NCBI RefSeq assembly: GCF_033153115.1 | Contig: NW_026889759.1 | Span: 11,222,001-11,286,000, forward strand | Reading direction: 5' to 3' | Length of the DNA stretch: 64,000 bases | Source: Saccostrea echinata | Taxonomy: Eukaryota | Shown: piece after piece, positions 458 through 64,000 of the stretch | Numbering within the stretch: the first letter of the stretch is position 1 | How the letters are laid out: each line of letters opens with the position of its first letter | Made by a program: the position numbers and the translations under genes | The notes under the pieces: model-generated | The model's database searches: none | Seen by the model: the letters and a program-made list of their open reading frames with translations, nothing else | Told to the model about the DNA's origin: nothing

Positions 458-3302
458 TGTAAAGACGAATAATGACCCCATAGAATAATGACCGGAGGGT
501 CATATTTCAACGACAAAAAATGACCCCCAGCCGTAGAAAAAATAAATTTTTTGTAGAAAAAGAGACCTAGGGTTCATTTTTTTATGTGTGCTTCCTATAA
601 AAAATTGACCCCCGTTGAAAAATGACCCCCTTTCCAACAGAGTGCATGTACAAAATTTATAACGGGTGATCGATGCCAAGGTTTTAACTTCAATGTTTGA
701 TATTCTTTATGCCCTTTTTGACCAGCACTGGACAAACGCGCAATTAAAATGCAATAAAACCGCATTACATTTACCTGCATATTTCTATCTTTTAAGCCTA
801 TTGTGTTCTCAGCACATATTGAAAATCGCAAAATGGCTACTATTGGTTATAACTGTTAACGTAATTTCCCTTTATGACTGTCTTCCATTTGTTTCATATT
901 TGGATATTTGACTGATTATAGACATTCATAGTTAAATAACAGACAAGTGGTATGTTCTGGCATTTCATTGGTAAACATGTCTCCCAAAGTAATCAGCATG
1001 CTTTGAGTAGGATCAACTTTAAAAAAAAAAATGAAGGAAAAAAAAAGAATGAAATAAGTTTTCAGAAATAAATACGGAAAGTTATGCAATGTAATATATA
1101 TGCATATTTTGAATGACATAAAAAGTCGTGCAAATGAGGTAGAATGTATCGAAAATGACGTAATAACTCGTGCGAACGACATATTGTGGATATACATATT
1201 TCTTAATAAAAAAAAATGGTGAAGATAACGAACAGTGATGATTTTAAAATATCCACAAGCAGTACAATTTTGTTAACAGGGCATAAAAAAGGACCCTCGA
1301 AAATTGCAGAGGTGGGATCAGGTGCCTAGAAAGAGTAAGCATCTCCTGTTGTCCCGTTACACCGCCGTGAGCGCTATGAATAAATCAGGTAAACGGGACA
1401 TTTCGTTGTCGAATTTAGTATAAAGACGGGCCAAACAATTGACCTAATTATAGGTTATATTTGTTGACAGGGTCATTGATACGACCATTGAATCTACGAA
1501 ATGCTGACTTTAAACGAGGTTGTTGAAACCCCTGTAACATCAACTTACATGTATCTGTCAGTAGCCTGCCTCGATTTAAAAATTAATCGTGCTTTTTGGG
1601 TATCGAATAAGTTGGAAGACGTAAACATTATATGCAAATGATTGCAGAATATTACTTCATAATTAAGGAAAATTGACAATAGAAAAGGCTAAAGTCATCC
1701 CGTTTGTCAGACAATTAAGTTGTTAGTTGGTCTTTATGGTCTATAGTCAGTAGAACGTCCAAATATGAAGCAGACGTGACAAACATAAGAAGGACATAAA
1801 ATTTCTGCATCTCTGAAATATATACAATCTTATGATGTGCATTCAATTTTATTTATAAACAGTGGTCTACTCTATGGGAATTTCTTTTCAAGTATATAGA
1901 AGTAATACAGGAGAATCCCAGTATAATGTACATTCAAGTCTGTGAACATGGTCGTCTGAGAATAGGATACATACATGTAAGAGGAATATTTTTTAATCCA
2001 CTTTAAAACAGTGATACATTTGTCAAATCAATATGGAAACATTTTCAATACAGTGTATATTGAAGTAGATTAATGTTTTCAATCTATAATTAAAGACAAA
2101 ACTATTTTATTGACCTTCAAGGTGAATACATGTATAAGGATTTATTTTTCCTACATTGAACTAAAAATAGATTGAAAACAATTCTGAAAAGTTATTTCAC
2201 CTGCATCTGAATTCTACTCAAGTGAACATAATATTCAGGCACAAAGAATCGGAGAAGAGGGAGGGATTGTTCCCCCTTTTCTGAATGTAAATTTTAGCAA
2301 TTTCTAATTTGAAAATGTTCATTGAAAGTCTTGTAACCACCCCCTCTTTCTTATACAGTATAGTTAAAAAATCTCTCCTACTTGAGTGAACAAAATGAAC
2401 ATTACATTCAGGCACATAGAATCAGGGATGGTGTGTCCAGCCCCTTCCATTTCCATGAAGGTACTTTTTTTCGCCTGAAAATGGTCATTGCAAGTCTGGT
2501 TGTCCTACCCCCAGCTTTTTGGTACAGTAGAGTAAAAGAAAATCCCACTTACATCAATAAACTTTTTGAGGGGTTCATCAAAGATATTTTTAACTAAAAG
2601 TATTTTTAATTTTTGACTCTTATAATGCGCCATTTCCCCTTTCGATGCTATGCCCGACATTTGTTTTTTCTACATTGCACCAAAACTAGATTTCAAATGC
2701 AAAATTAATACTGGTTATGCTTACATGTATGTTAACTCCTATTCTTTCACTCTGTTTGGTTAGACTTGAGCAAATGTAAATGTACATGTCTGCGTAATCG
2801 GTTTGTATCAATTTAATAGTTGAATCATATAATAAAACAATTATTGCTGTTTTTCTGTCAGGACGATCAGTGATTTTCCACCATCGAAAAACAATGCTCT
2901 CCTCGCCCTTTGTACTCGATAAATCTTTAACTCCATTTGATTCTGAATCATTGAATTGACCTTAAAAACAGCAATGATTGTATAATGTAATGAGATCAAT
3001 ATATCATCGATTTATTCCCAATGAAGCTCAAGTGAGCATTTTGGCCAACAGGTCTCTTGATTTATTAGTTTTATTTTGCCCCCTAAAAGTTTCAACTTTA
3101 ATCCGCTTTAAATCACATGGGGTCATTATTCTACGGGGGTCATTTTTCTTCACGTGGGGTATGCAGGTTTTTAGGGTTATGACACTTTTTCTGCGGGCAA
3201 AAGGGTCATTTTTCGCCGTTGAATAATGACCGGGGGTCATTATTCGACGTCGAAAAATGACCCCCGGTCATTATTCAATGTGGGTCATAATTCGTCTTTA
3301 CA
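458..3302. mobile_element. Non-autonomous Ginger1-type DNA transposon
   Basis: Termini TGTAAAGACGAAT...ATTCGTCTTTACA. 4-bp CCGG duplication at 454-457 and 3303-3306. Repeated AATGACC(C)/GGTCATT subterminal motifs at both ends. No transposase ORF. Confidence 0.8.
1216..1780 (-). mobile_element. Penelope-like retroelement 3' fragment (RT thumb + 3' UTR), decayed and unedited
   Basis: Minus strand gives remnants of the AYGVY.SQLIRY and LMLQGFQQ.RLKSAFR..GR motifs, plus the tail ...CTAGGCACCTGATCCCACCTCTG...CTGTTCGTTATCTTCACC. Homologous to 34900-35381. Confidence 0.75.
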
Positions 3303-20271: not shown

Positions 20272-23200
20272 CTATAAATCTTTTGAAATATTTTTAACAA
20301 TCCATCGATAGAATTTACTGACGTCTGTGTAAATTCCAAACTTCCGCTTCTGTCCACAACCTTCACCATAACTAGTGACACCATTTACATACCACTTCCT
20401 ATTATAGAGACCACGTGACTTGACACAAAGTAATGGTCCACCGCTGTCACCAGTACAAGCGTCTTTCTGGCCTTTTGAATAGCCTGCACACAGCTGAGAG
20501 CTTGTAACTCTAAAGGAAAATGCTTTTTTGCACTTCTTTTTCTTTACTATCGGAACTTGAACTTCATATAATACTTTATTGTTATGAGGTGCTGTTATAT
20601 TTGTTTTACCCCAACCAAGGGTACTACATAATGTCCCTGCTTTCACTCTAAATTTTTTACCCTTTTTGGGTATGCACGCATATCCTGTACTATTTGAAAT
20701 GTGCACAGGTTTGGAAAGTTTGAGAAGAGCAATGTCATTTGCAACTAATGCGTAGTTAAATTTTGGATGCGGCAGATATCGACTGACGCTGATATCCTTT
20801 TCTGTACCTTCTCGAACATCTGTATCATGTTCGCCAACGCGAACAAGTACTTTTCGCTTTCTTCCCTTTTTTACGATGCAGTGGGCAGCGGTCAATACCC
20901 AGCGTGGAGAAATCAAAGTTCCACCACAAAAGTGTCGCTTCCTTTTTGTTAGAATCTCAACCTAAATAGATAAAATAGCATGTATAGTATAACCATCTCC
21001 TTAAGTTTATATGTATACAATAGGATAGGAAAATTACGTGTAACTTACCTGCCAGGGCCAGCTATGTGGAATACTCTCGTGTCCTCCCACAATGCGAGGG
21101 GATCTTGTGTTAGGTCTTATTCCACAGACACTTTGCAAACCCTTTAAAGTCTTAAGTTTGTCTAGATTTGAAGAAAAAGGCACATTTAATTTATATTGAG
21201 ATAATTATGTGTTCGTTAATGTTTTATCCACTGAATAATTTGATTTGGCTACAAAATAAGAATCTGATTTACTACCTTGTCTATTTTTTGGTCGATTTTT
21301 AACATATAATGACATTATCTTGTTGCACTTGGAAGTACTCTTGCAAGATTTTTCTTCCTCCAAAAATCCTCCTGTGCAGATATCAGTCTTGCACTTCCGG
21401 CGACGCCTCGTTTTGCAATCACCGCTGCATGCTGTCCACGCTGTCCAAGAATGATAGAAAATGTCATATAAACGATCCTCTATTCTTCTATTTCGTAAAC
21501 TAGAACCAATAATCTTAAATGAATGATCAGGACATTGCCGGGTACGGTGTTTGCATGATTGTTTTTCTTTGAATCTTGATTTTCCGCAGACGTCTTTTTT
21601 GCGACATTTGCGCATGCGCGTCTGCATGCAGTTTCTATTGCATTTCGACCAAGTTGTCCACTGAGTGTAGAAATCGCAAAATATTTTCTCTGGAAAAGGA
21701 GACTTTGATGTCGTGTTTGAAAAAAATTCATCCTTCGTTGAATTATTATTCACTGTTGCATTGCTAATGGTTGAGGCAAAATTGTTCGTGGCCTACAACG
21801 ACAGAAAATACATGATGTACTTCATAGAAAAAGACTATCATAAAAAAACCATTTGGATAAACTAAATTAAACGATCTTTGTGTCTGATTAAATTCTTAAT
21901 TTAGCGAACCAAAAATTTTGCAAGATATGATTTCATGCTACGAATTTATTCATGTTTATTTATAGGTAATTAATTTATAACAGATTCTAGTTTGTCAAAT
22001 AAAATCTTCAATAATAGTGCTGGAGGAATATATATTAAACATTTAATAATTCGGTAGAAAATCAGACTGTGGAATAAATGCAGTGCTTATGTCTATGTCG
22101 AGAATCTAATGCAGAGCAAAATACATGTATGTTAATATGTATCTGGATTTTTTTTTTAAATATATAAAAATAATGTAAGTATATACCTTAAGAAAACGGG
22201 ATGTTATCGGTTTCATTGTACAATGTAATGATGAAGTTGTTTTATATCAGGGATAAAACTCTATTAGTTTAAACTTAAAATAGTTTGTGAATAATTGGTG
22301 CACACATAATTGTTTTCTTCCCATAGGAAAAAATAACACCTTCCACCAAAATTTTTAAAAAAAATATAGCGTAAAAAACATATATATTTACAAAGACTCC
22401 ATTTCAAATGAGGTCTTATGCATAATAGGAAAAAAGATTTAAACAGTAAACTTTTAATCAAAACTTTTCCTTGAATTCCCTTACAACCGGCGATATAATT
22501 GTTGTCAGTCTGCGACATTCGGAGGTTACTCTATTTTATAATAACGGCTAAAGTTGTACGTGTAATTGCTTTTCCATCGAAATTTGACAACCGAAATGTT
22601 ATGAAATATGCAACCCTGTGTTATATTCTCATCTAAAATTCTTTAGTCAAATCAGACAAAAACTGATGGAGGATTAGGTTCTGAAAGCTTACAGAGACGG
22701 AGATGGACAGCCAGACTGACTTAACCTCAAGCTAAAACTTACCAATTATATCGGCATGAAATAAAGGATATTTATAGCTATAAATAATAAAATCATTCTA
22801 CCTCGACAAAGATAACAATTTCAAGAATTAATGACATAACCCGTGTTAAACAAATGATAATGCATGAAGTTCTAATTCCAATGATTATCCCAGACAAAGA
22901 GATACAATCTGTGCAGTACTTTCATTCATTCAATCTACATATAAAGACATTAATGACATAAAAATTACCAAACAAACGATTCCAGTCATCCTTATCTACC
23001 ACTGGGAAAGAATTCAGAATCAGTTAAGCGCTATCTTGTCATTGTGGTAACCTGAAGTCTGAAAAGGCTTTCAAGGACCCCACTGGCCATTGTCTTTCAT
23101 TCTTATTCTCTGATAGTTTGAGCACGAAAAGAGGGTGATGTAGAGTTAAATATTTAATAAATCCTGGACTGTCATATCTTCAACTTATGTAACGTTCGTC

Positions 23201-33954: not shown

Positions 33955-35381
33955 GATTTACTGCACACACAAGTATTCTGAAGTAGATATTAATAAGATG
34001 CTCGACTTTCCGATTGACAATATCTATGTGGCTTTTGGATATCAGGTCTTCCAAAAATCCGTCGGAATTTTCATGGGTACCAATTGCACACCGTTATCAG
34101 CCGACCTATTTTTGTATTCAAATGGTGCAGAATTCATCCAAAAACTTGTGCATGGAAGGGGAGGGGGACGCTCGCTGTGGCCTTCGGCTCGACATTTAGA
34201 TACATCGACCTAATATCAATTAACAATACAGTAAAACTAGTTTAGTACGAACAAGGATATTAAGAATTCACGGTTATAGCGAAGTTTTTTTGGAATCCCC
34301 GGCAAAATTCTGCACAAATCCTAGGAAAATATTACAATTATAACGAACTCTGATATAACGAATTTACGGATATAGCAAACTGATTTTGTGTCCAGTAGAG
34401 GTTAAAAATAACGAAAATTAAATCTTTTATAACGAATTTTCAATATATATTAAAATTGAAATATTTATCTGATATTATTTTTAATCAGTATTTATATCGG
34501 ATATTCAATATTTTAAAAATCTTAAGTGCCCTATGGAAAACTTTGTAGTGAATACCTCCAAGTACATTGTACATATTTGGTAGTAATATTTAAATAAAAA
34601 AATGCATATTGCGAATTCGTTATATATACTTTAACGAATTCGTTATACGGATATAACGAATTACGGATATAGCGAAGTAAATTCACAAACCCTAAGACTT
34701 CGCTATATTCGAGTTTTACTGTAGTTACTTCCATATGTCGACTCGATATATTCCAGTGACCTTGAGGTGGAAGATACCAAAGATTCTGACACATCTGTTT
34801 CATATTTGGATATTTTACTAGAAAAAGACGTTAATGGTATCCTAGCAAAATTTTATGATAAGCGTGATAACTTTTCTGTCGTCAACTTCCCTTTCTTATG
34901 TACGTAGCGGATTACTTATACCCTTGTCACCTGTGTATGGGGTTTGTGTCTCCCGGTTGGTTCGGTGCGCGGGGGCGTGCTCCGCGTGCTAAAGTTTTCT
35001 AAAACGAGGCAAGCTGTTGACTGGCGGGTTGGTGGGGCAGGGATATCGTCAGTCTCGTTTGGAGTCATCCTTTCGCAAATTCTGTGGTCGGTGCAATGAC
35101 CTAGTCAGCGGGTATGGTCTGTCATTGGGCCGAATGCTGACTGACGTTTTTCGCACTAATTGTTGGGTCATTGTTTCAACACTGAATTGTCAATGGATTT
35201 TTCCGTTTGCCTGATCATGACAGTGAGCACAAGGCGGGTGTGACTGGTCGACAGGTGATTCTTGCTCCTCTATGGCACCTGATCCCGCCTCTGATGTGTT
35301 TTTAGGTCCGTGTTTGCTCTGCTCCCGATTTGCATTGTTTCAATGGACATTTTAGCTTAATTACTGTTCGTTATCTCCATA
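33955..35381 (+). mobile_element. 5'-truncated Penelope-like retroelement (RT core to 3' end), A-to-G hypermutated and split by a MITE
   Basis: IDNIYV.FG.QVFQ.SVGI.MGTNC.PL.ADLFLYS, F-RYID, FYDKRD and F.VVNFP motifs. Tail CACCTGATCCC.CCTCTG...CTGTTCGTTATCT is shared with the copies at 1216-1780 and 59040-59300. Confidence 0.88.
34229..34721. mobile_element. Tc1/mariner (pogo/Tigger-like) MITE
   Basis: TA duplications at 34227-34228 and 34722-34723. TIR CAGTAAAACT...AGTTTTACTG. Internal TATAACGAA/TATAGCGAA repeats. Confidence 0.85.
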
Positions 35382-35858
35382 TTAAATTGAATTCAGCTGA
35401 AATAATCTTTGTTGTTATTCATCAAGCAAACATTACTACGCATTCGACATCCATTGCATCTGCGTGGTTAAAAATTTAGCAATTTTGAAATGCATCATCT
35501 CACTTCTTTATTACTTTTTGTATAGTTATTAATTTTGCAAAATGGATTTGCGTTGTTGGAGGTGTTAACAGTGTATAAACAATCAAATACAGTTAACTTT
35601 GGGTTAAGTTTTAATTTAGAACATCGCACAATGGAGTAAACAAAACTTCGAAAATAAAATTTGACATTTACACTCATAATGAAATCGCGTAATGAGCAGA
35701 GAAATGTAATTAAAACTAACTAAACAAATAAATAGAGGGCGTATGAAGCTTAGCATGATGTTAAGTATTAGGTTACGTGAATGCTAGTGATGTGATCACA
35801 AGGCCACTCTGAAATTCATATTTATTTATCTACCCATTTTTATATTATCACCTTACTT

Positions 35859-53721: not shown

Positions 53722-56293
53722 TTAAAACTTCAATTGAATTCTGCGTTGTTTGGATTCGGCAAATCTAGTAAGTATATTGCGAACAGAAACTGCCTGGTGT
53801 CTGTGAATGAACAGCAAGGCAAGACCGACCAGGCGATCCTCATTCATTGTTGATCTCCCCCAGTGTTTCAGACGTCTCATTGCGGAAAAAGATCTTTCGC
53901 AAGGCACAGATCCAACTGGCATGGTGAGCAAAATACGGAAAATGACATGCAAATTTGGGTAAAAGTCCGAGTCAGCTAACATGATTGCATTGCTTAAGGA
54001 ATTTCTTTCAAAACCATCATTCGGCAAGTTTCCACAGAACACTTTCCAACGTTCGAATTCTTGATTAAACACATCTCTGTCCGGTAAATCATCTTGGAAC
54101 CTTTCTATAATATCTGCCAATTCGTCTCGGGTAAGTGTGTCTATCTGGCCTGGAAGAAGCTTGAAGGCTAGGAATGAAGGACGTGTCTCGTCAGAAAATC
54201 TGTCGTTGAGTTCCTTCAAACAATGATCAACAAATGGCAGGTAAGTATTTATTCTGTAGTATTCTTCAGCAGTGCCAGCAAGAACAGCATTTGCTCTGTG
54301 TTGCATATGACCCGCCGTTCTTGGTTTCTGTAACTCGATACCAATACTGTCAGCAATGGCTGATGCTTTTGACCATATACATCTCTGAAAAACTTCCTCA
54401 CAACGCTGATCATTAATAACTTGCTTGCAATTCTGTGCGTCAACAAAGGCCTTGTATACATCACATTTTGAACTCTGGAGAGCCAAAGTCAGAGGCTTCA
54501 TATAACTCAGTATGTGGTGTGCAACAACAATTGCAACAATAAATGAACTCTTCTCCATCATATTTATAAATGCAGTGGCTTTCGTACGAGCATCGGATAC
54601 AGTGCTTTCATTTCTGACATCTTCGAGCGTCGATAATATGGCTGCATACTTTCCAATGACAACTGAAAGAGTATCAACTCTAGCAGACCATCTATTTTCG
54701 CAAAGGTTAGGCAAGATGTTCACAGAAAACGATTTTTCTATGTTTGTTTTTATTACTTTCGGTTACCTCATTTTCGATATTTCCAATTAAATAATCAACT
54801 TGTTTTGCATTTGGCAAATGTCGTTTCATAATCGAAACTCTCTTTGGACTGGCCCCAAGAAACCATGTCAGCTGATTAACATCATCAAAGAGGTTTCTGA
54901 CCATAGGTATGTTCTTGCATGAAGAAGATATAACTAAATTCAGTGCATGTGCTCGACAGTGGTGGTACTCAGCAAGCGGTTGGACTTCCCGTATACGAGA
55001 ACAGACCCCAGATTTTGATCCAGACATAACGCTTGCCCCATCATAACCCTGCCCTCTAAGGTATTGTGTATCTAAATTACAGTCTTCAAGCTTTTGCAAA
55101 ATTGCATTACTTAGGGATGCTGCATCGACTGAATCTAGAGGAGCATATCCAATGAAGTCTTCGTTTACTTCATTGTTTTCATCCACATACCTGATGCATA
55201 TAGCCATTTGTTCAATATTGGCTACATCTGCACATTCATCGGCCATAACAGAAAACCATTTGGCAGTCCTTGTACGGGACAATATTGAGTTTAGTACTTC
55301 TTCTCCAGCTAACTCAATTATTTCATTTTGAATGTCGGGACTAAGATATTTTGCATTGTAAGCTGCATTTTCAAGGTGAGCTTTAAGAAAGGGTTTTTCT
55401 TTAGCCAACCAGTGAACAAAGAAATCAAAATTACCATCCTCCCGTTTTGTGATAGTGTCCCAACGATGACCTCTAAACGGAATATTCCGTTGACCGAGAG
55501 CAATGACTACGTTTATAATGTTTGACAATATTTCTCTGTTTTTAAGAACAGTATCTTCATAACTTTGAGATATACTGCTTTTGATGCTTTTTTCTTCCCC
55601 CGAATAAACTTTCATAAAGTTCACTGCCTTAACAAGAGCGTTTTGGTGAGCACTTGATTCCTCATGAATCTGTAGAGTACCTCTTTTAGAACCCGTAGCA
55701 TTTTTCCAGTCTCTGAGACCAGACGTTACAAGTTTGTCCGATTGATTTTGCTGACCAAAAGCAATGCATGGGGCACAAAATGCTGCATCTTTCGATAGCG
55801 AATATCTTAACCAAATGAATTTATCTTCCCAAGTTAAATTGTATCGTCTGCCATTGGTTACAGGAAATGAATATTTTTCGTGTGGAGAAGGACTCCATTT
55901 GCTTGACAGTATCTTTGATTTTTCAGCATCATCTAAAACTTTCTGTATAAAATTTACTGGATCCATCGACTCTGTTTTGGGTTTTTTTCTCTCGTTATAT
56001 TGCTCGGGCTTTGAAAGTTCTAATGTTGGCGTAATATATTCATCTGTTTGTGAAAAATAGGGAATTACTAGTAATAGAAGAATTTGTGGGGTTTTTTTTA
56101 TGGGAAGCAGGTTTGTAGTGCCTTAGTTAATTCTGAAACTATGTTTATAAGGATAAAAAAATTATTCACTAGTTTATAGGTTTTGTAAAATAGGCCTACC
56201 TGACGCCGATTCTAGACTGTCTTCTTTCCTTTTCCTCAGAAAGGATGTCAACTTTGTTTGCCCCTTTTTCTTTTGGTTTCTGTTTTGGTCCAT
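53722..56293 (-). pseudogene. hAT transposase with one intron (exon 1 56293-56200, exon 2 56043-53722) and a single frameshift near 54757
   Basis: TTF zinc finger, FSVMADE, GQGYDGAS, HCRAHALNL, RW, CERSFSAMRRLK. The phase-1 intron joins in frame to MDPVNF. Confidence 0.88.
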
Positions 56294-56566: not shown

Positions 56567-59039
56567 GAAGCAAGGCCCTGTGACCTACGTAGACAACTGT
56601 TCGAGATCAGCATCTGTCAAATCTTTGCCCTTCCCAGAATAGTTGAATCAATAACAATTTGTTGACCCTGTCCTCTAAACATAGCCATGATGCTTTTCTT
56701 TTCTTGCTGTAGAGATGAATCTATCCGTTGAAGGAAGCACATTTGCTTCTTGTTTACCTCAGTAACATATACTTTAATAGCTTTCAGAGCATACAGAATT
56801 CTACACGAGAGATCACTCTCAATGATTGTTTAATAAGTGATAAAAAACTATAAATTATTTTTTTCTCCGGAACACCGTGCCTTGCCAATGTCCATTACAT
56901 GTATCTCAAGGAATTTGAAGTATAGTGTTGAAAATCATGCGTTTTGATGCTTTTAATTTTGAAAAAAATTGTAATTACAAATTTTCTAAAAGGTCTTTGG
57001 AGTTTTTCAGTATCTACACCTTTGATTATCACCATTCTTCAAATATGTTGATGTACAGTACTGCTAAGGTTTCTTCTTAATTGCTGTTAAATTTTTCCTG
57101 GGGGAGTCAAGAAAGACCCGGTAGAACATTTAATAGGACCCGCTATGTATATGTCTTTGTAAGGATTTTTCTGAAGTTTAGGAATCCAGTATAAGTATGG
57201 CTATTTATATTCAATTTGATTGTTGAACTATAGAATATATTTAAAATTGGCACACGATTTAGAAGAGTCTTCATTTTCAAGGGAACTTTTAGTACAAGTT
57301 GGATTACCACTTGTATAATCAAATCCAAGTTCCTCTAAGATGCAATTGTAATGTTACATAAAATCTGCAAAATACATTTCCTTCCAAGAAATTTTAAAGG
57401 CAAATTTGTTCCAATAAACCCACACAAGATCACCTTAGTTCAACAGCAGATTGAGGGTATATATGACTCAGTCTTGGCATTTATTCTAGCATACTACTAA
57501 TACGCGTTGAAACGTACCCCCCTTCCCCCCAAAATACTAGGTAAAAATAAAGGATGATTGTACAAAAGAAACAGTGCCCATTCAGTCTTATTAATGCATG
57601 TTCAATAAATCGAGATAGACAATTGTCTTTCAATGCGATATACATGTATGAAGAAAATTGTGTAAACTGAGGTCTGAAACCATGTTTGACGAGTCATATG
57701 ATCGCTGAGCACCGTGCAAAGGTAGCTTCGTGTCTCTCAATTTGTATATTTGCACTATAGTCGCTGCCTTGCCAGTTCTCGAAATGTAATTTTGAAATGG
57801 CAGAATTATAAACTTTGTAGTTCTAAGGCTGACTGAATCTGATATCAATTGCAAGAAGTCAGAGGGAAAAAAAACTAGTTAATTTTTGCACATAAATGTC
57901 TACTTTTGATAGAAGAGAACAGCTTTGAATTAAAATTTGATATGGATGATATTTTATTTTTTGTATAGATACTATCGAAAAAAAGTTGTCGCCAATATGT
58001 GTACTTTCTCCAGTTGTGGAGGGTCCTTTGAAGCAATTCCGAATGTGATGAATGAATCCCCTACAGCTTTAAAGATAATAGACAAAAAATCGGTAAAATA
58101 CAACAATCATTGATAAAAACAAGACCGTAAAAGATTTTCCTCAGCAAGACGGAGACATTTATCGCCTAGCGCAAATCACTATATTGGATAGAAATGATAG
58201 TGAATAATAACTCAATAATAACAATTACTTGTGATGATTAAAACATGTGACCCCGTTGGTGAATCAGAGAATGTCATTCAAAATATCTCCAATGGGGAAT
58301 ATCCGTGAAATAAATTGCAAGTGGACTAAAGAAAATTATCTGATTTTTACCTACTTGGACTGGTGGTAGAAGTATTGTGAAATGTTTTATCTCTGTTTCT
58401 CTCTTCCTTTCAAACAAGATTTCCAACATAATTATTTACCTTTTACAAAGTTAATAAAAGCCTGCTCCAGGAGAGTTCAAATTATGTCAAAAGATACCCT
58501 ACTTTTTTCAACCGCACATCTAGACCTTATGCTGTAGTGTCTATGCTTCTTGTTACATTTTTGTATCCTCCAGGGGCTTTTAGTCTTTGATGTCTCCAAA
58601 AAAGAAGCAGACATGTTATTTTTAGCATGGTTTATATTTGTATATCCGTTGGTCTTTGTGTCAAAGGTCGTGTCCTTGTAATAACTTTCGAACTCATAAT
58701 CTGAATGATTTTAACCGACTCTAACGTGTAATGTTCTTTACTCAAGGTTACATTTCGAAGCTCCATGTCACTGTAACACGAGATCAGTGAATTGATGATT
58801 TTTTTTAAAATCTTTTTTAAAAGTACTTAAATCTTTGGTGTTTTACTGCTATGAGTCATACATGTGTAAGTGTATTTCTATGGTTTAGTGCAAAGATCAA
58901 AGATAAGGTCACTAGGCAGGGAAAGTGAATAGATATCTTGACTTTAACCTTTGAGCCCTTAACATGAATTTAAACTTGATGATGCTGATCACCGATAGGT
59001 GTCTCATTACACTGGATAAAGTTTAAGGTCATGAAATGT

Positions 59040-61069: not shown

Positions 61070-64000
61070 TGTTACGAACGCAGCTTCTTCCTGTCTATTT
61101 ATTTAAATGATTGGATAAATGATTTAATGTAACGACAAGACCATGTGAGCTAAATAGCCCCTCCAGCTTATCACTTATAAAATAATGATATGAAACATGT
61201 ACATAGCGTATTTGCATTTAATTTTATGATTCATAATTATTGGATTGTGTATCTATCGAAATGTTTATAACCCGAAATTCCTCGATGGGGATAAGAACGT
61301 CATATATAAACAGCGATCAGCTGATTTCAGAAACAGATTCCTAGCTCTCATCTGAGATCAAGACGTATCATGACTGATGAATCTCGTTGGGTAATTGTCG
61401 GTTCTAACTTTAATTAATGGGAGCTGATGCCTGATCCAAAATTGGGATAATCTATTAATAGGATCATTTGTATGAAATAATTTTATATTCATTGTATTTA
61501 GTGTATATTCTAGAGTGGGAGAAAGTTATGGGAGAGAGTTACTCCCACAAGTAATTTGATGCTCCCGCTAGATCCGTATTATTAAATCTACCTTTTATGT
61601 ATTATTATTCATTGTTGCTAATTATAGGATATTCTTTCGCTACATTTATATGAGTGGGAGAGACAAGGGTTAATTCAATAAAAAAATTATTTGTACTTTC
61701 ATAAAATTTCTTTACTGTTATGTTCAACAAACAGAGTTGGGAGACCCACACGTTACTTTCACATAGGTAAAACAGTGAAACGTAATATTGATGTCAGAAG
61801 TGGGATTTAATATTCCCATTCTTCTCGTTGAACGGGAGACTAAATCATAACAAAATAACACCAAACATATATAAATCTATTTAATTATCATAATTAAAAA
61901 AAAATGTCCCAAAACAATAGCAAGTTAGAAGATTCAGAGGAGGTAATCTTTCATCCCAGGTCTTGTATTGGGAAAAATTTCTCCCTTGATCAAGATATGG
62001 ATCCTAAGGTGTCCTCTCCCAAACAGGCATCAGCCGCCCAACAAACTGAAAATATGAATGAACTTATATTGAATGCAATGCAAAACATGAGCAAAAAATT
62101 TCAATGCATGAAACATGATATGAAAGAAAAGATTTATGAAATGAGACAAGAATCTCTTAGATTACAAGCAGAAATTGACATATTAAAAAAATAAGGGTTA
62201 CCCTCCTCAAAACCCAACCACACAACAAGTAAATGGGAATAGGGAACATGTACCATAAAAACCCAGAATAACGGACTGTTTATCAGATGTAAATAGGAAC
62301 GAAAATGGGTTTACAAAACCCATCCTAAAGCCAACAATTGGAATAAAGCCCCAAACTTTTGATTGGGGGGAATGATTTTGACGAGTACCTCACGCAGTTC
62401 AAAATTCTTGCGCTATTACATAATTGAGATTACAGAACCAAGTGCCTTTATTTAGCCAGTAGTTTAACTGGGGGAGCAAGGGCTATTCTGACAGAATTAA
62501 ATGAAACCCAACAGCAAGATTTCGATTCACTTGTAAGTGTTTTGAACATGAGATATGGCTCAATAGAAAGAGCCGAAATGTATCGTGCAAGATTGAAAGG
62601 TCAAGTTAGGGGAGAAAAAGAATCACTCCCTGAATTAGCCCAGTCAAGAAAGAAGCTTACCAGACGGGCATATCCAACAGCTGACCCTGCTGTTATTAAT
62701 ACACTGGCATTAGACTATTTCATAGATGCCTTAACTGACCCTGATATGAGGCTGCGCCTACGGGAAGCAAGGCCGAAAGACATCAATGAAGCCGAGATAC
62801 TGGCTATCCGGCTTGAAAAATACAAACTTGCAGATGCCCAAAGAGGTCAAACAGTTAACAATATCAAAGTTAACAAAGAGAATGAACAAGACTCTTTAAC
62901 TGCTTTTAAACAAGCTGTAAGGGATGATATTCAATCCCTTACCAAAGAGATTAGAGACCTTGTGAAAAACACTCACTCAAAATATCCACAGAATGATCAT
63001 GGGGAGAGTAACCCATCCAACATGGGATATAGAAACCACTATGGTCAAAATAGGGGTAACAAAGATCACTTTTATAGACAAAATGACTCCCATCCTCAAA
63101 GATCGTCAAACTTTCCCGTGTCGAATTCGGGGGTCGGAAGTCGGCAGAGGAATGGGGTAGACCCCAGAAACATCCAATAGAAAATAATACTTGTGAACTC
63201 CAAGAGTCAGTCAAACTCAAACAAAATATTGAAAATAAAGAAATTAATCTGGGAGCAAAATCTCAGAAAAATAGAAATGATTCAAAAGAAATAAAAATAG
63301 GAGATATAAGGAAAATGTTCAACGAAGGAATTTATGTTGTTGGGAAAATTGAAAATCACCCAATTTCGATGTAAGTAGATACAGGAGCTAGCGTGACCAT
63401 ATTGAGCTCTGATATACTTGAAAATGTTGATCTGGGAAAGAAGATTAATTTAACACCATCCTCAGTGAAACTGACATCTGCAAATGGGGAGAGAATTGTT
63501 GTTTGAGGGGAATGTCCCATGAAAATAACTGTTGGAAATGCAACTGTTACTCACAATTTCTTAGTGGCAAATATCCTAAATAAGTGTATCTTAGGGATAG
63601 ATTTCATGCAACAAAATGCATGTGATATATTAGTAAAGAAAATGAACTTTAAAAAAAGGTAAAGAAGTACCTTGTGTTTACAGTGAAAATTTGGATGTCC
63701 CTTTCTGCAAAGTATTACTTGCCGAGGATATTTAAGTACCTCCAAATAGCGAGTTCATTGCACCTGGGAAGATAGAAAATGCATTATTCAAAAGCAGGGT
63801 GGCCCTTGTAGTTTGTTGAGAAACATGAATTATTAATTCCAAAGACCTTAGTTAAGGTGGAGGGGGAAGAAGTTCCCATTCGTTAATCGTTATACAAATT
63901 TGAATGACCATAGTGTGAAAATTCACAAAGGTACAGTTTTAGACACTATTGAGAATGTAGAAGAAATGTATGAGAATACTGAGACAGTTAATACCCTTTT
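61070..64000 (+). mobile_element. Ty3/Gypsy LTR retrotransposon, decayed and running off the window: 5' LTR 61070-61787, PBS 61789-61806, gag ~61904-63180, protease from ~63340
   Basis: LTR TGTTACG...CGTAATA, PBS TGATGTCAGAAGTGGGAT (tRNA-Leu-like), gag IKPQTF..YLASSLTGGA..ESLPELAQ..AYP..FIDAL, protease VDTGASVTILS and ILGIDF. Stops and frameshifts throughout. Confidence 0.88.

Follow-up and report, generated by a model that had tools for sequence, protein, structure and literature searches.

The window (the whole 64-kb stretch of DNA that was analyzed) contains a copy of a Penelope-like element (PLE) on its plus strand (Table 1). The earlier note had recognized a Penelope-like retroelement at 33955..35381; this assignment stands and can be made more exact, as the element is of the Naiad type, and a DNA transposon inside the copy had gone unmentioned. 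The copy spans positions 1736–2663 of a natural young copy of the same family (L122:4701-7372), which was used for mapping. Its 3′ part aligns to positions 2005–2663 of that copy, with 50 A>G, 7 T>C, and 4 G>A differences.

Table 1. Features of the 64-kb window. Positions are those of the window; L122 is the 2,672-nt family copy used for mapping.
Feature	Position	Strand	Remarks
Naiad-type Penelope-like retroelement copy	33962-35382	+	5′-truncated
5′ part of the copy, RT motif B to C region	33962..34226	+	Corresponds to L122:4701-7372 positions 1736-2001, 80%
A>G tract 1, A-rich lysine tract now G-rich	34125..34187	+	11/21 conserved A read G
Later-inserted non-autonomous DNA transposon, 497 nt	34227-34723		Terminal inverted repeats, TA at both ends
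3′ part of the copy: RT end, former stop codon, 3′ end	34724..35382	+	
Small A>G cluster	34767..34770	+	Three changes
A>G tract 2, core	34926..35132	+	36/60 conserved A read G
Codon of the ORF stop	35164..35166	+	TAG in other copies, here TGG
Distant sister fragment of the same family	1220..1778	-	67-71% identical; no A>G skew
Older fragments of the same family	51675-51918 and 56920-57347	-	75-76% identical to L122
Trypsin-family serine protease exon next to a Cys/Trp-rich frame	20272-20961 and 21205-21792	-	PF00089, E=1e-60
Tandem array, units of ~180 nt	46002-47494		407-codon open frame on minus strand
hAT-family transposase, two overlapping frames	53722-56122	-	PF05699, PF14291
250-codon open frame	62428-63180	+	No Pfam match

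A KR block and the motifs CxC, GxKF, and DKA are diagnostic of the Naiad clade, whose elements also have a C-terminal RT, are often truncated at the 5′ end, and occur in thousands of copies (PMC8557442); the present family shares all of these. In the L122 frame, CSC at residue 188 followed by GPKF (also found in L123) corresponds to the Naiad CxC and GxKF/Y motifs, and DKA at residue 315 to the Naiad modification of DKG. The linker motifs were read in longer family copies, the window copy being truncated below that region. The KR-rich block is represented by a short RRKR near the start of the frame in long family copies. About 220 nt separate the stop of the family ORF from the 3′ end, and no C-terminal EN follows the RT. 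Naiad elements have an N-terminal GIY-YIG endonuclease with a CCHH motif. The longest family copies examined (2.67 kb) are themselves 5′-truncated, and the GIY-YIG core was not seen in them; the stretch before the linker in the family frames resembles what we take to be the tail of an EN. In Naiad elements an insertion in the fingers makes the spacing of motifs A and B ~20 aa longer; measured in L122 by itself, the starts of the two motifs are 88 residues apart (468 to 556). Naiad elements also have no canonical hammerhead ribozyme; L122 and L123, both of which are without the 5′ end, had no Rfam match of any kind. Four family frames had no match in Pfam, and a PDB sequence search with the family ORF gave none. 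An Atlas search with the same ORF returned RT-containing clusters at 0.91–0.94, which serve as a lead only. The family has at least 2,095 members, as counted from genome matches of one 24-letter motif. The published account of the Naiad clade makes no mention of editing in the parts covered (PMC8557442), whereas the present family carries edited copies.

The composition of the window copy is unusual. As the earlier note had pointed out, only 2 A are found in the 70 nt at 34921–34990, and no other 70-mer of the window is like it; T stays abundant, with no 70-mer of 2 or fewer T anywhere in the window. The surroundings had been called very A-rich, but they are AT-rich (20900 A vs. 20879 T). An excess of A>G differences had also been claimed from comparison with the sister fragment in the window. 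The sister is too diverged to serve as a yardstick, but the skew itself was recovered against genomic copies (49 for the 5′ part, 53 for the 3′ part; commonest letter per column). In columns conserved at 85% or more, A>G was found at 59/242 positions vs. 15/271 for T>C (Fisher p=1e-9), 3/149 for G>A, and 9/161 for C>T. The check proposed in advance, whether A>G exceeds the other classes, thus came out with A>G far above every one of them.

The changes are clustered: none of the 41 conserved A at 33966–34120 is changed, unlike those in the tracts downstream, and in its wider extent tract 2 covers 34845–35173 with 43 changes. The 3′ part has 54 A>G sites, 29 of them private with respect to 53 other copies and 38 found in at most one; in a first comparison set no other copy had more than 14 A>G in this part. 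The predicted protein changes YVSQLIRYAR>CVSRLVRCAG and KFYGRY>KFCGRC are present in the copy's own frame, A>G at 34767, 34769, and 34770 (the EIK>EVE example) was likewise confirmed, and the altered codon in Table 1 is indeed the stop of other copies, of which 3/53 likewise have G. One listed example, at 35209, can be read either way, as most copies have T at this position and some older ones have A.

The transposon and the flanks provide internal controls. Compared with 18 of its own copies, the transposon shows 36 differences in all and A>G at 1/169 A columns. Since it is unskewed yet diverged, the A>G burst is old, predates the insertion of the transposon, and is not a regional property; the insertion itself is old. 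Where inspected, the flanks of edited copies retain their A residues. The transposon was considered as a hairpin source and rejected, being unedited.

Edited tracts used as queries gave 236 alignments in 135 loci, a set biased towards A>G. At least 14 further independent copies with sense-strand A>G tracts of their own were identified, making 15 with the window copy. Their A>G/T>C counts are 110/2 (L129), 102/2 (L130), 102/3 (L132), 81/2 (L135), 41/1 (L127), 41/2 (L136), 41/2 (L131), 38/1 (L150), 31/1 (L146), 20/2 (L126), 19/4 (L134), 13/1 (L167), 11/2 (L144), and, from a set sampled by position, 40/5 (L206). L133 was dropped from the count as a duplicate of L132. Weak candidates outside the 15 are L137 (19/6), L246 (9/0), L143 (7/1), L202 (6/0), L156 (6/2), and L157 (5/1).

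To sample by position, motif matches were taken in sequence from the start of contig C1 until 100 of the 2,095 had been collected; all 100 could be mapped. One copy was heavily edited (L206) and two were lightly or possibly edited (L202 and L246); none of the 100 was skewed towards T>C, the longest T>C run being 2. The edited share is therefore 1–3%, or about 20–60 copies, with a wide interval of 0.03–8.5%; the 24-letter sampling motif tolerates A>G and not T>C, which introduces a slight bias. Genome-wide, a mirrored pair of motifs gave 5 A>G matches vs. 0 T>C matches, the five all being known edited copies at four independent places. Two earlier pairs had been discarded: the first was too strict (1 vs. 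0), and the second was asymmetric, one A being a subfamily variant (22 matches, including 3 already known edited copies, vs. 0).

It could be argued that the G residues belong to a G-rich subfamily, or were produced by GC-biased gene conversion or by double-strand hypermutation at TpA. A few A>G sites of the window copy are in fact subfamily variants (34948, 35013, and 35042, present in 11–15 of 53 copies). The sharing of G residues among many copies had been named beforehand as a sign of a subfamily trait, and it was found near the level of independent events: edited copies have G residues in common about as often as expected by chance, or slightly more often (52 vs. 45.6 for L092/L104, for instance), and each has private sites. 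Pairs of edited copies differ at roughly 20–100 sites, with the exception of one exact duplicate, and any sequence common to their flanks outside the element is limited to short pieces of other repeats. T>C stays at background, against any process acting on both strands, and all four 5′ contexts are changed, against TpA hypermutation. These explanations are largely refuted, and we regard them as very improbable. The other divergence of the edited copies ranges from 0.9 to 9.6%, and the events therefore recurred over time. The earlier interpretation of the window copy as a fossil of A>G-edited PLE RNA is thus supported, with the amendment that it is not a single event and that the share of the family given above is affected.

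The exact duplicate bears on the quality of the assembly. L132 (C54:36255000-36264900) and L133 (C16:4611200-4621100) form a 9.8-kb, 99.45% identical pair with all 102 changes in common. On these two contigs, some 0.6 Mb from the first pair, L307 and L308 also have scores identical to each other, and the stretch shared by C54 and C16 is likely a long duplicate or a retained haplotype. Editing might in principle be imitated if the assembly had been polished with edited RNA reads or if base calling had erred systematically, and clusters of same-type mismatches are a known trace artefact (PMC2873906). Such an origin is nonetheless most improbable, given that all 102 changes recur on two contigs, that the skew follows the orientation of the element on both contig strands, and that host transcripts would be edited in both arms of inverted pairs and in the inverted-repeat transposon, whereas the inverted neighbors and the transposon are unedited. 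Contigs assembled from four read runs contained the family and the transposon; the unique flanks of the locus were absent from them, so these contigs have no bearing on the locus.

Inside the tracts the spectrum is almost purely of one class: A>G 592, A>T 13, A>C 3, T>C 11, C>T 15, and G>A 8. Because copies share sites, neighbor preferences were averaged per site and labels were permuted over 205 sites. In the pooled copies, the rate of change depended on the 5′ neighbor, with T at 0.61 (p=3e-4), A at 0.51, C at 0.47, and G at 0.32 (p=1e-4), and a 3′ G raised it to 0.62 (p=0.003). No preference was seen at positions -2, +2, and -3 in the same permutation, and the UAG context was edited in 10/11 cases. 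A 5′ G was below the other contexts in 12/14 copies (p=0.013), the exceptions being the window copy and L126. The avoidance of 5′ G expected by the earlier note is therefore a property of the pooled copies and is not seen in the window copy alone. There, the statement that many surviving A residues follow a G was not borne out, as 10/16 A after G were changed vs. 43/71 elsewhere (p=1), with 9/18 vs. a rate of 0.45 in a second count. Nor was a 5′-T preference seen there (10/24 changed, a small number). The subfamily of the window copy is 8–10% from the yardstick, which blurs neighbor calls.

In metazoans, ADAR favors a 5′ U or A, disfavors a 5′ G, and favors a 3′ G (PMC9989829), and the pooled pattern matches this preference. 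ADAR-family deaminase domains (PF02137) are encoded in the genome; this domain also occurs in ADAD proteins. C>T changes at CpG generated by editing (5/151 vs. 1/153) were too few for use. An error of polymerization is the alternative on which the spectrum and the context bear most directly: G could be misinserted opposite T during second-strand synthesis when dATP is low or dGTP is high, or the RT could be error-prone at A. Such an error would be expected to give tract-limited A>G on the sense strand and a 3′-G preference, the latter being what a bias of the nucleotide pool would also produce. It does not predict the depletion of 5′ G together with the enrichment of 5′ T, and the near-background A>C and A>T counts exclude A>N infidelity of the DGR type. 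We consider polymerase error quite improbable.

All tracts lie within positions 1813–2654 of the L122 copy, i.e., in the 3′ ~850 nt; this confinement is partly a matter of ascertainment, as it was A>G-rich queries taken from the 3′ region that recovered most of the edited copies. Upstream of position 1800, 2 changes were found in 533 observations of A in edited copies, and L131 has 439 unedited A ahead of its first tract. In 6/14 copies 2 or fewer unedited A lie between the 5′ end and the first tract, a count made without a null expectation. Several edited copies show structures of their own. At L126:3600-5150 an unedited segment (928–2037) is fused to an edited one (2203–2670) and editing begins at the joint, possibly a template switch between two RNAs. 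At L136:4596-5158 two edited segments are separated by a long G homopolymer that replaces about 110 nt of the element. At L135:4301-6053 an edited copy sits within another family member that is older, unedited, and oriented the same way. The independent edited copies at L129:4960 and L135:4753 start at element positions 1942 and 1944, and a plain copy starts at 1943; positions ~1942–1944 are possibly a preferred truncation point.

Adenosines in duplex RNA are converted to inosine by ADAR, and inosine is copied as G by reverse transcriptases. Had first-strand cDNA been deaminated instead, the changes would appear as T>C, and the restriction of the changes to the sense strand therefore fits an RNA intermediate. 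Judged from sequence comparison, ADAR very probably edited double-stranded RNA of the element, which was then reverse-transcribed into germline DNA. The duplex would involve the 3′ portion of this RNA. PLE insertions often carry an inverted 5′-truncated copy at their 5′ end (PMC8557442), and we favor intramolecular pairing with such a flanking copy as the source: in read-through RNA the inverted arm would pair with the 3′ end, and the host ADAR would hyperedit the sense strand within the duplex. Antisense RNA from the thousands of 3′-end copies would be an alternative source. As the element RT would start at the 3′ end, only the edited sense arm would be copied; the strand and position of the edits would thus be accounted for, since 3′-primed, truncated daughters record the sense arm only. 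Each daughter would be a coding-dead record of the editing of one RNA molecule. No long internal inverted match was present in the natural 2.67-kb copy, the longest being 54 nt at 70%. Inverted neighbors within 1.4 kb were not enriched at edited copies (2/10 vs. 10/125 plain copies, p=0.22); the intramolecular source does not require them at daughter copies.

The same neighbors are relevant to a change in situ after insertion, whereby edited cDNA would gene-convert a resident copy or ADAR would deaminate the DNA of an RNA:DNA hybrid. Three edited copies do lie 0.5–2 kb from an inverted family copy, ADAR has been reported to edit DNA in model hybrids (PMC12925331), and the resulting neighbor preference would be the same. 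Apart from the lack of enrichment, it is at odds with this that the inverted neighbors of the three copies are unedited, that the L132 tract (1853–2059) reaches past its partner (2101–2670), and that the 6/14 copies starting at a tract edge tie editing to the insertion event. We consider change in situ improbable. The possibility that an inverted partner and its edited neighbor arrived as one insertion was rejected, with 0, 0, and 1 variants in common.

Genomic fossils of deamination have been described for APOBEC, whose G-to-A “DNA editing” is recorded in vertebrate LTR retroelements; within a screen filtered for G>A, such editing was absent in 19 invertebrates, according to the part of the study covered (PMC4866542). 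The present case resembles those fossils in that hypermutation of a single class, clustered and biased to one strand, is fixed in genomic copies and detected by the same tests. It differs in that cytidine deaminases act there on cDNA (PMC4866542), whereas here a Penelope-like element shows A>G changes that probably arose on its RNA. ADAR hyperediting of retroviral RNA has been reviewed for Rous-associated virus, avian leukosis virus, and HTLV-2; about half of the A residues in a tract were changed to G, one case lay in an inverted repeat, and the changes passed through reverse transcription (PMC12925331). By our reading of the review, those viruses were exogenous and the cells infected, whereas here many independent, heritable, non-viral copies of a range of ages are found. 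At the RNA level, high editing of Penelope transcripts has been reported from Xenopus tropicalis (PMC10636886), and hyper-editing from oysters (PMC9044936). In these accounts of animal repeats, young repeats including Penelope are main targets and the neighbor preference is the same as here; their marks are in RNA, whereas ours are in DNA (PMC9989829, PMC10636886, PMC9044936).

Full-text literature searched by title and the start of the abstract, with few subscription journals, contained no report of ADAR-edited copies in genomes for any non-LTR element, Penelope-like or other. The case that comes closest there is Mtv61, a mouse endogenous retrovirus with an excess of A>G for which ADAR was likewise considered; in the part of the paper covered, its authors found no ADAR context, whereas the pooled context is significant here (PMC12548423). 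The phenomenon is real and recurrent and belongs to the deaminase-fossil type known in retroelements, with ADAR as the most likely agent. The sequence evidence points to hyperedited RNA of a mobile element repeatedly becoming heritable DNA, in ~1–3% of a family that numbers over 2,000 copies. It has been noted that restriction of L1 by ADAR1 appeared to be independent of editing in cell assays (PMC12925331), which makes a germline record of editing informative. Little is understood of how PLEs transpose, and every edited copy would mark a double-stranded part of a mobile RNA. The test for skew is cheap and can be repeated in any assembly, e.g., in lineages with and without ADAR.

A broader interpretation, which we put forward tentatively and consider rather unlikely to hold in full, is that, owing to the inverted architecture of PLE insertions, the mobile RNA forms a long duplex at its 3′ end that ADAR hyperedits, with ADAR acting in invertebrates as an APOBEC3-like mutator of germline retroelements. 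The RT would often stall, or the RNA be cut, inside the edited duplex, as is suggested by the 6/14 copies that begin at a tract edge, and genomes across animals might map the double-stranded RNA of PLEs molecule by molecule.

Several further features were noted in and near the window. Adjoining the serine protease exon is a Cys/Trp-rich frame with no match in Pfam that we presume to be thrombospondin-like, and the 250-codon frame near the end of the window is presumably gag-like. A Mab-21 nucleotidyltransferase gene (L121:8284-9900, minus strand; PF03281) lies about 4 kb from a young copy of the family.
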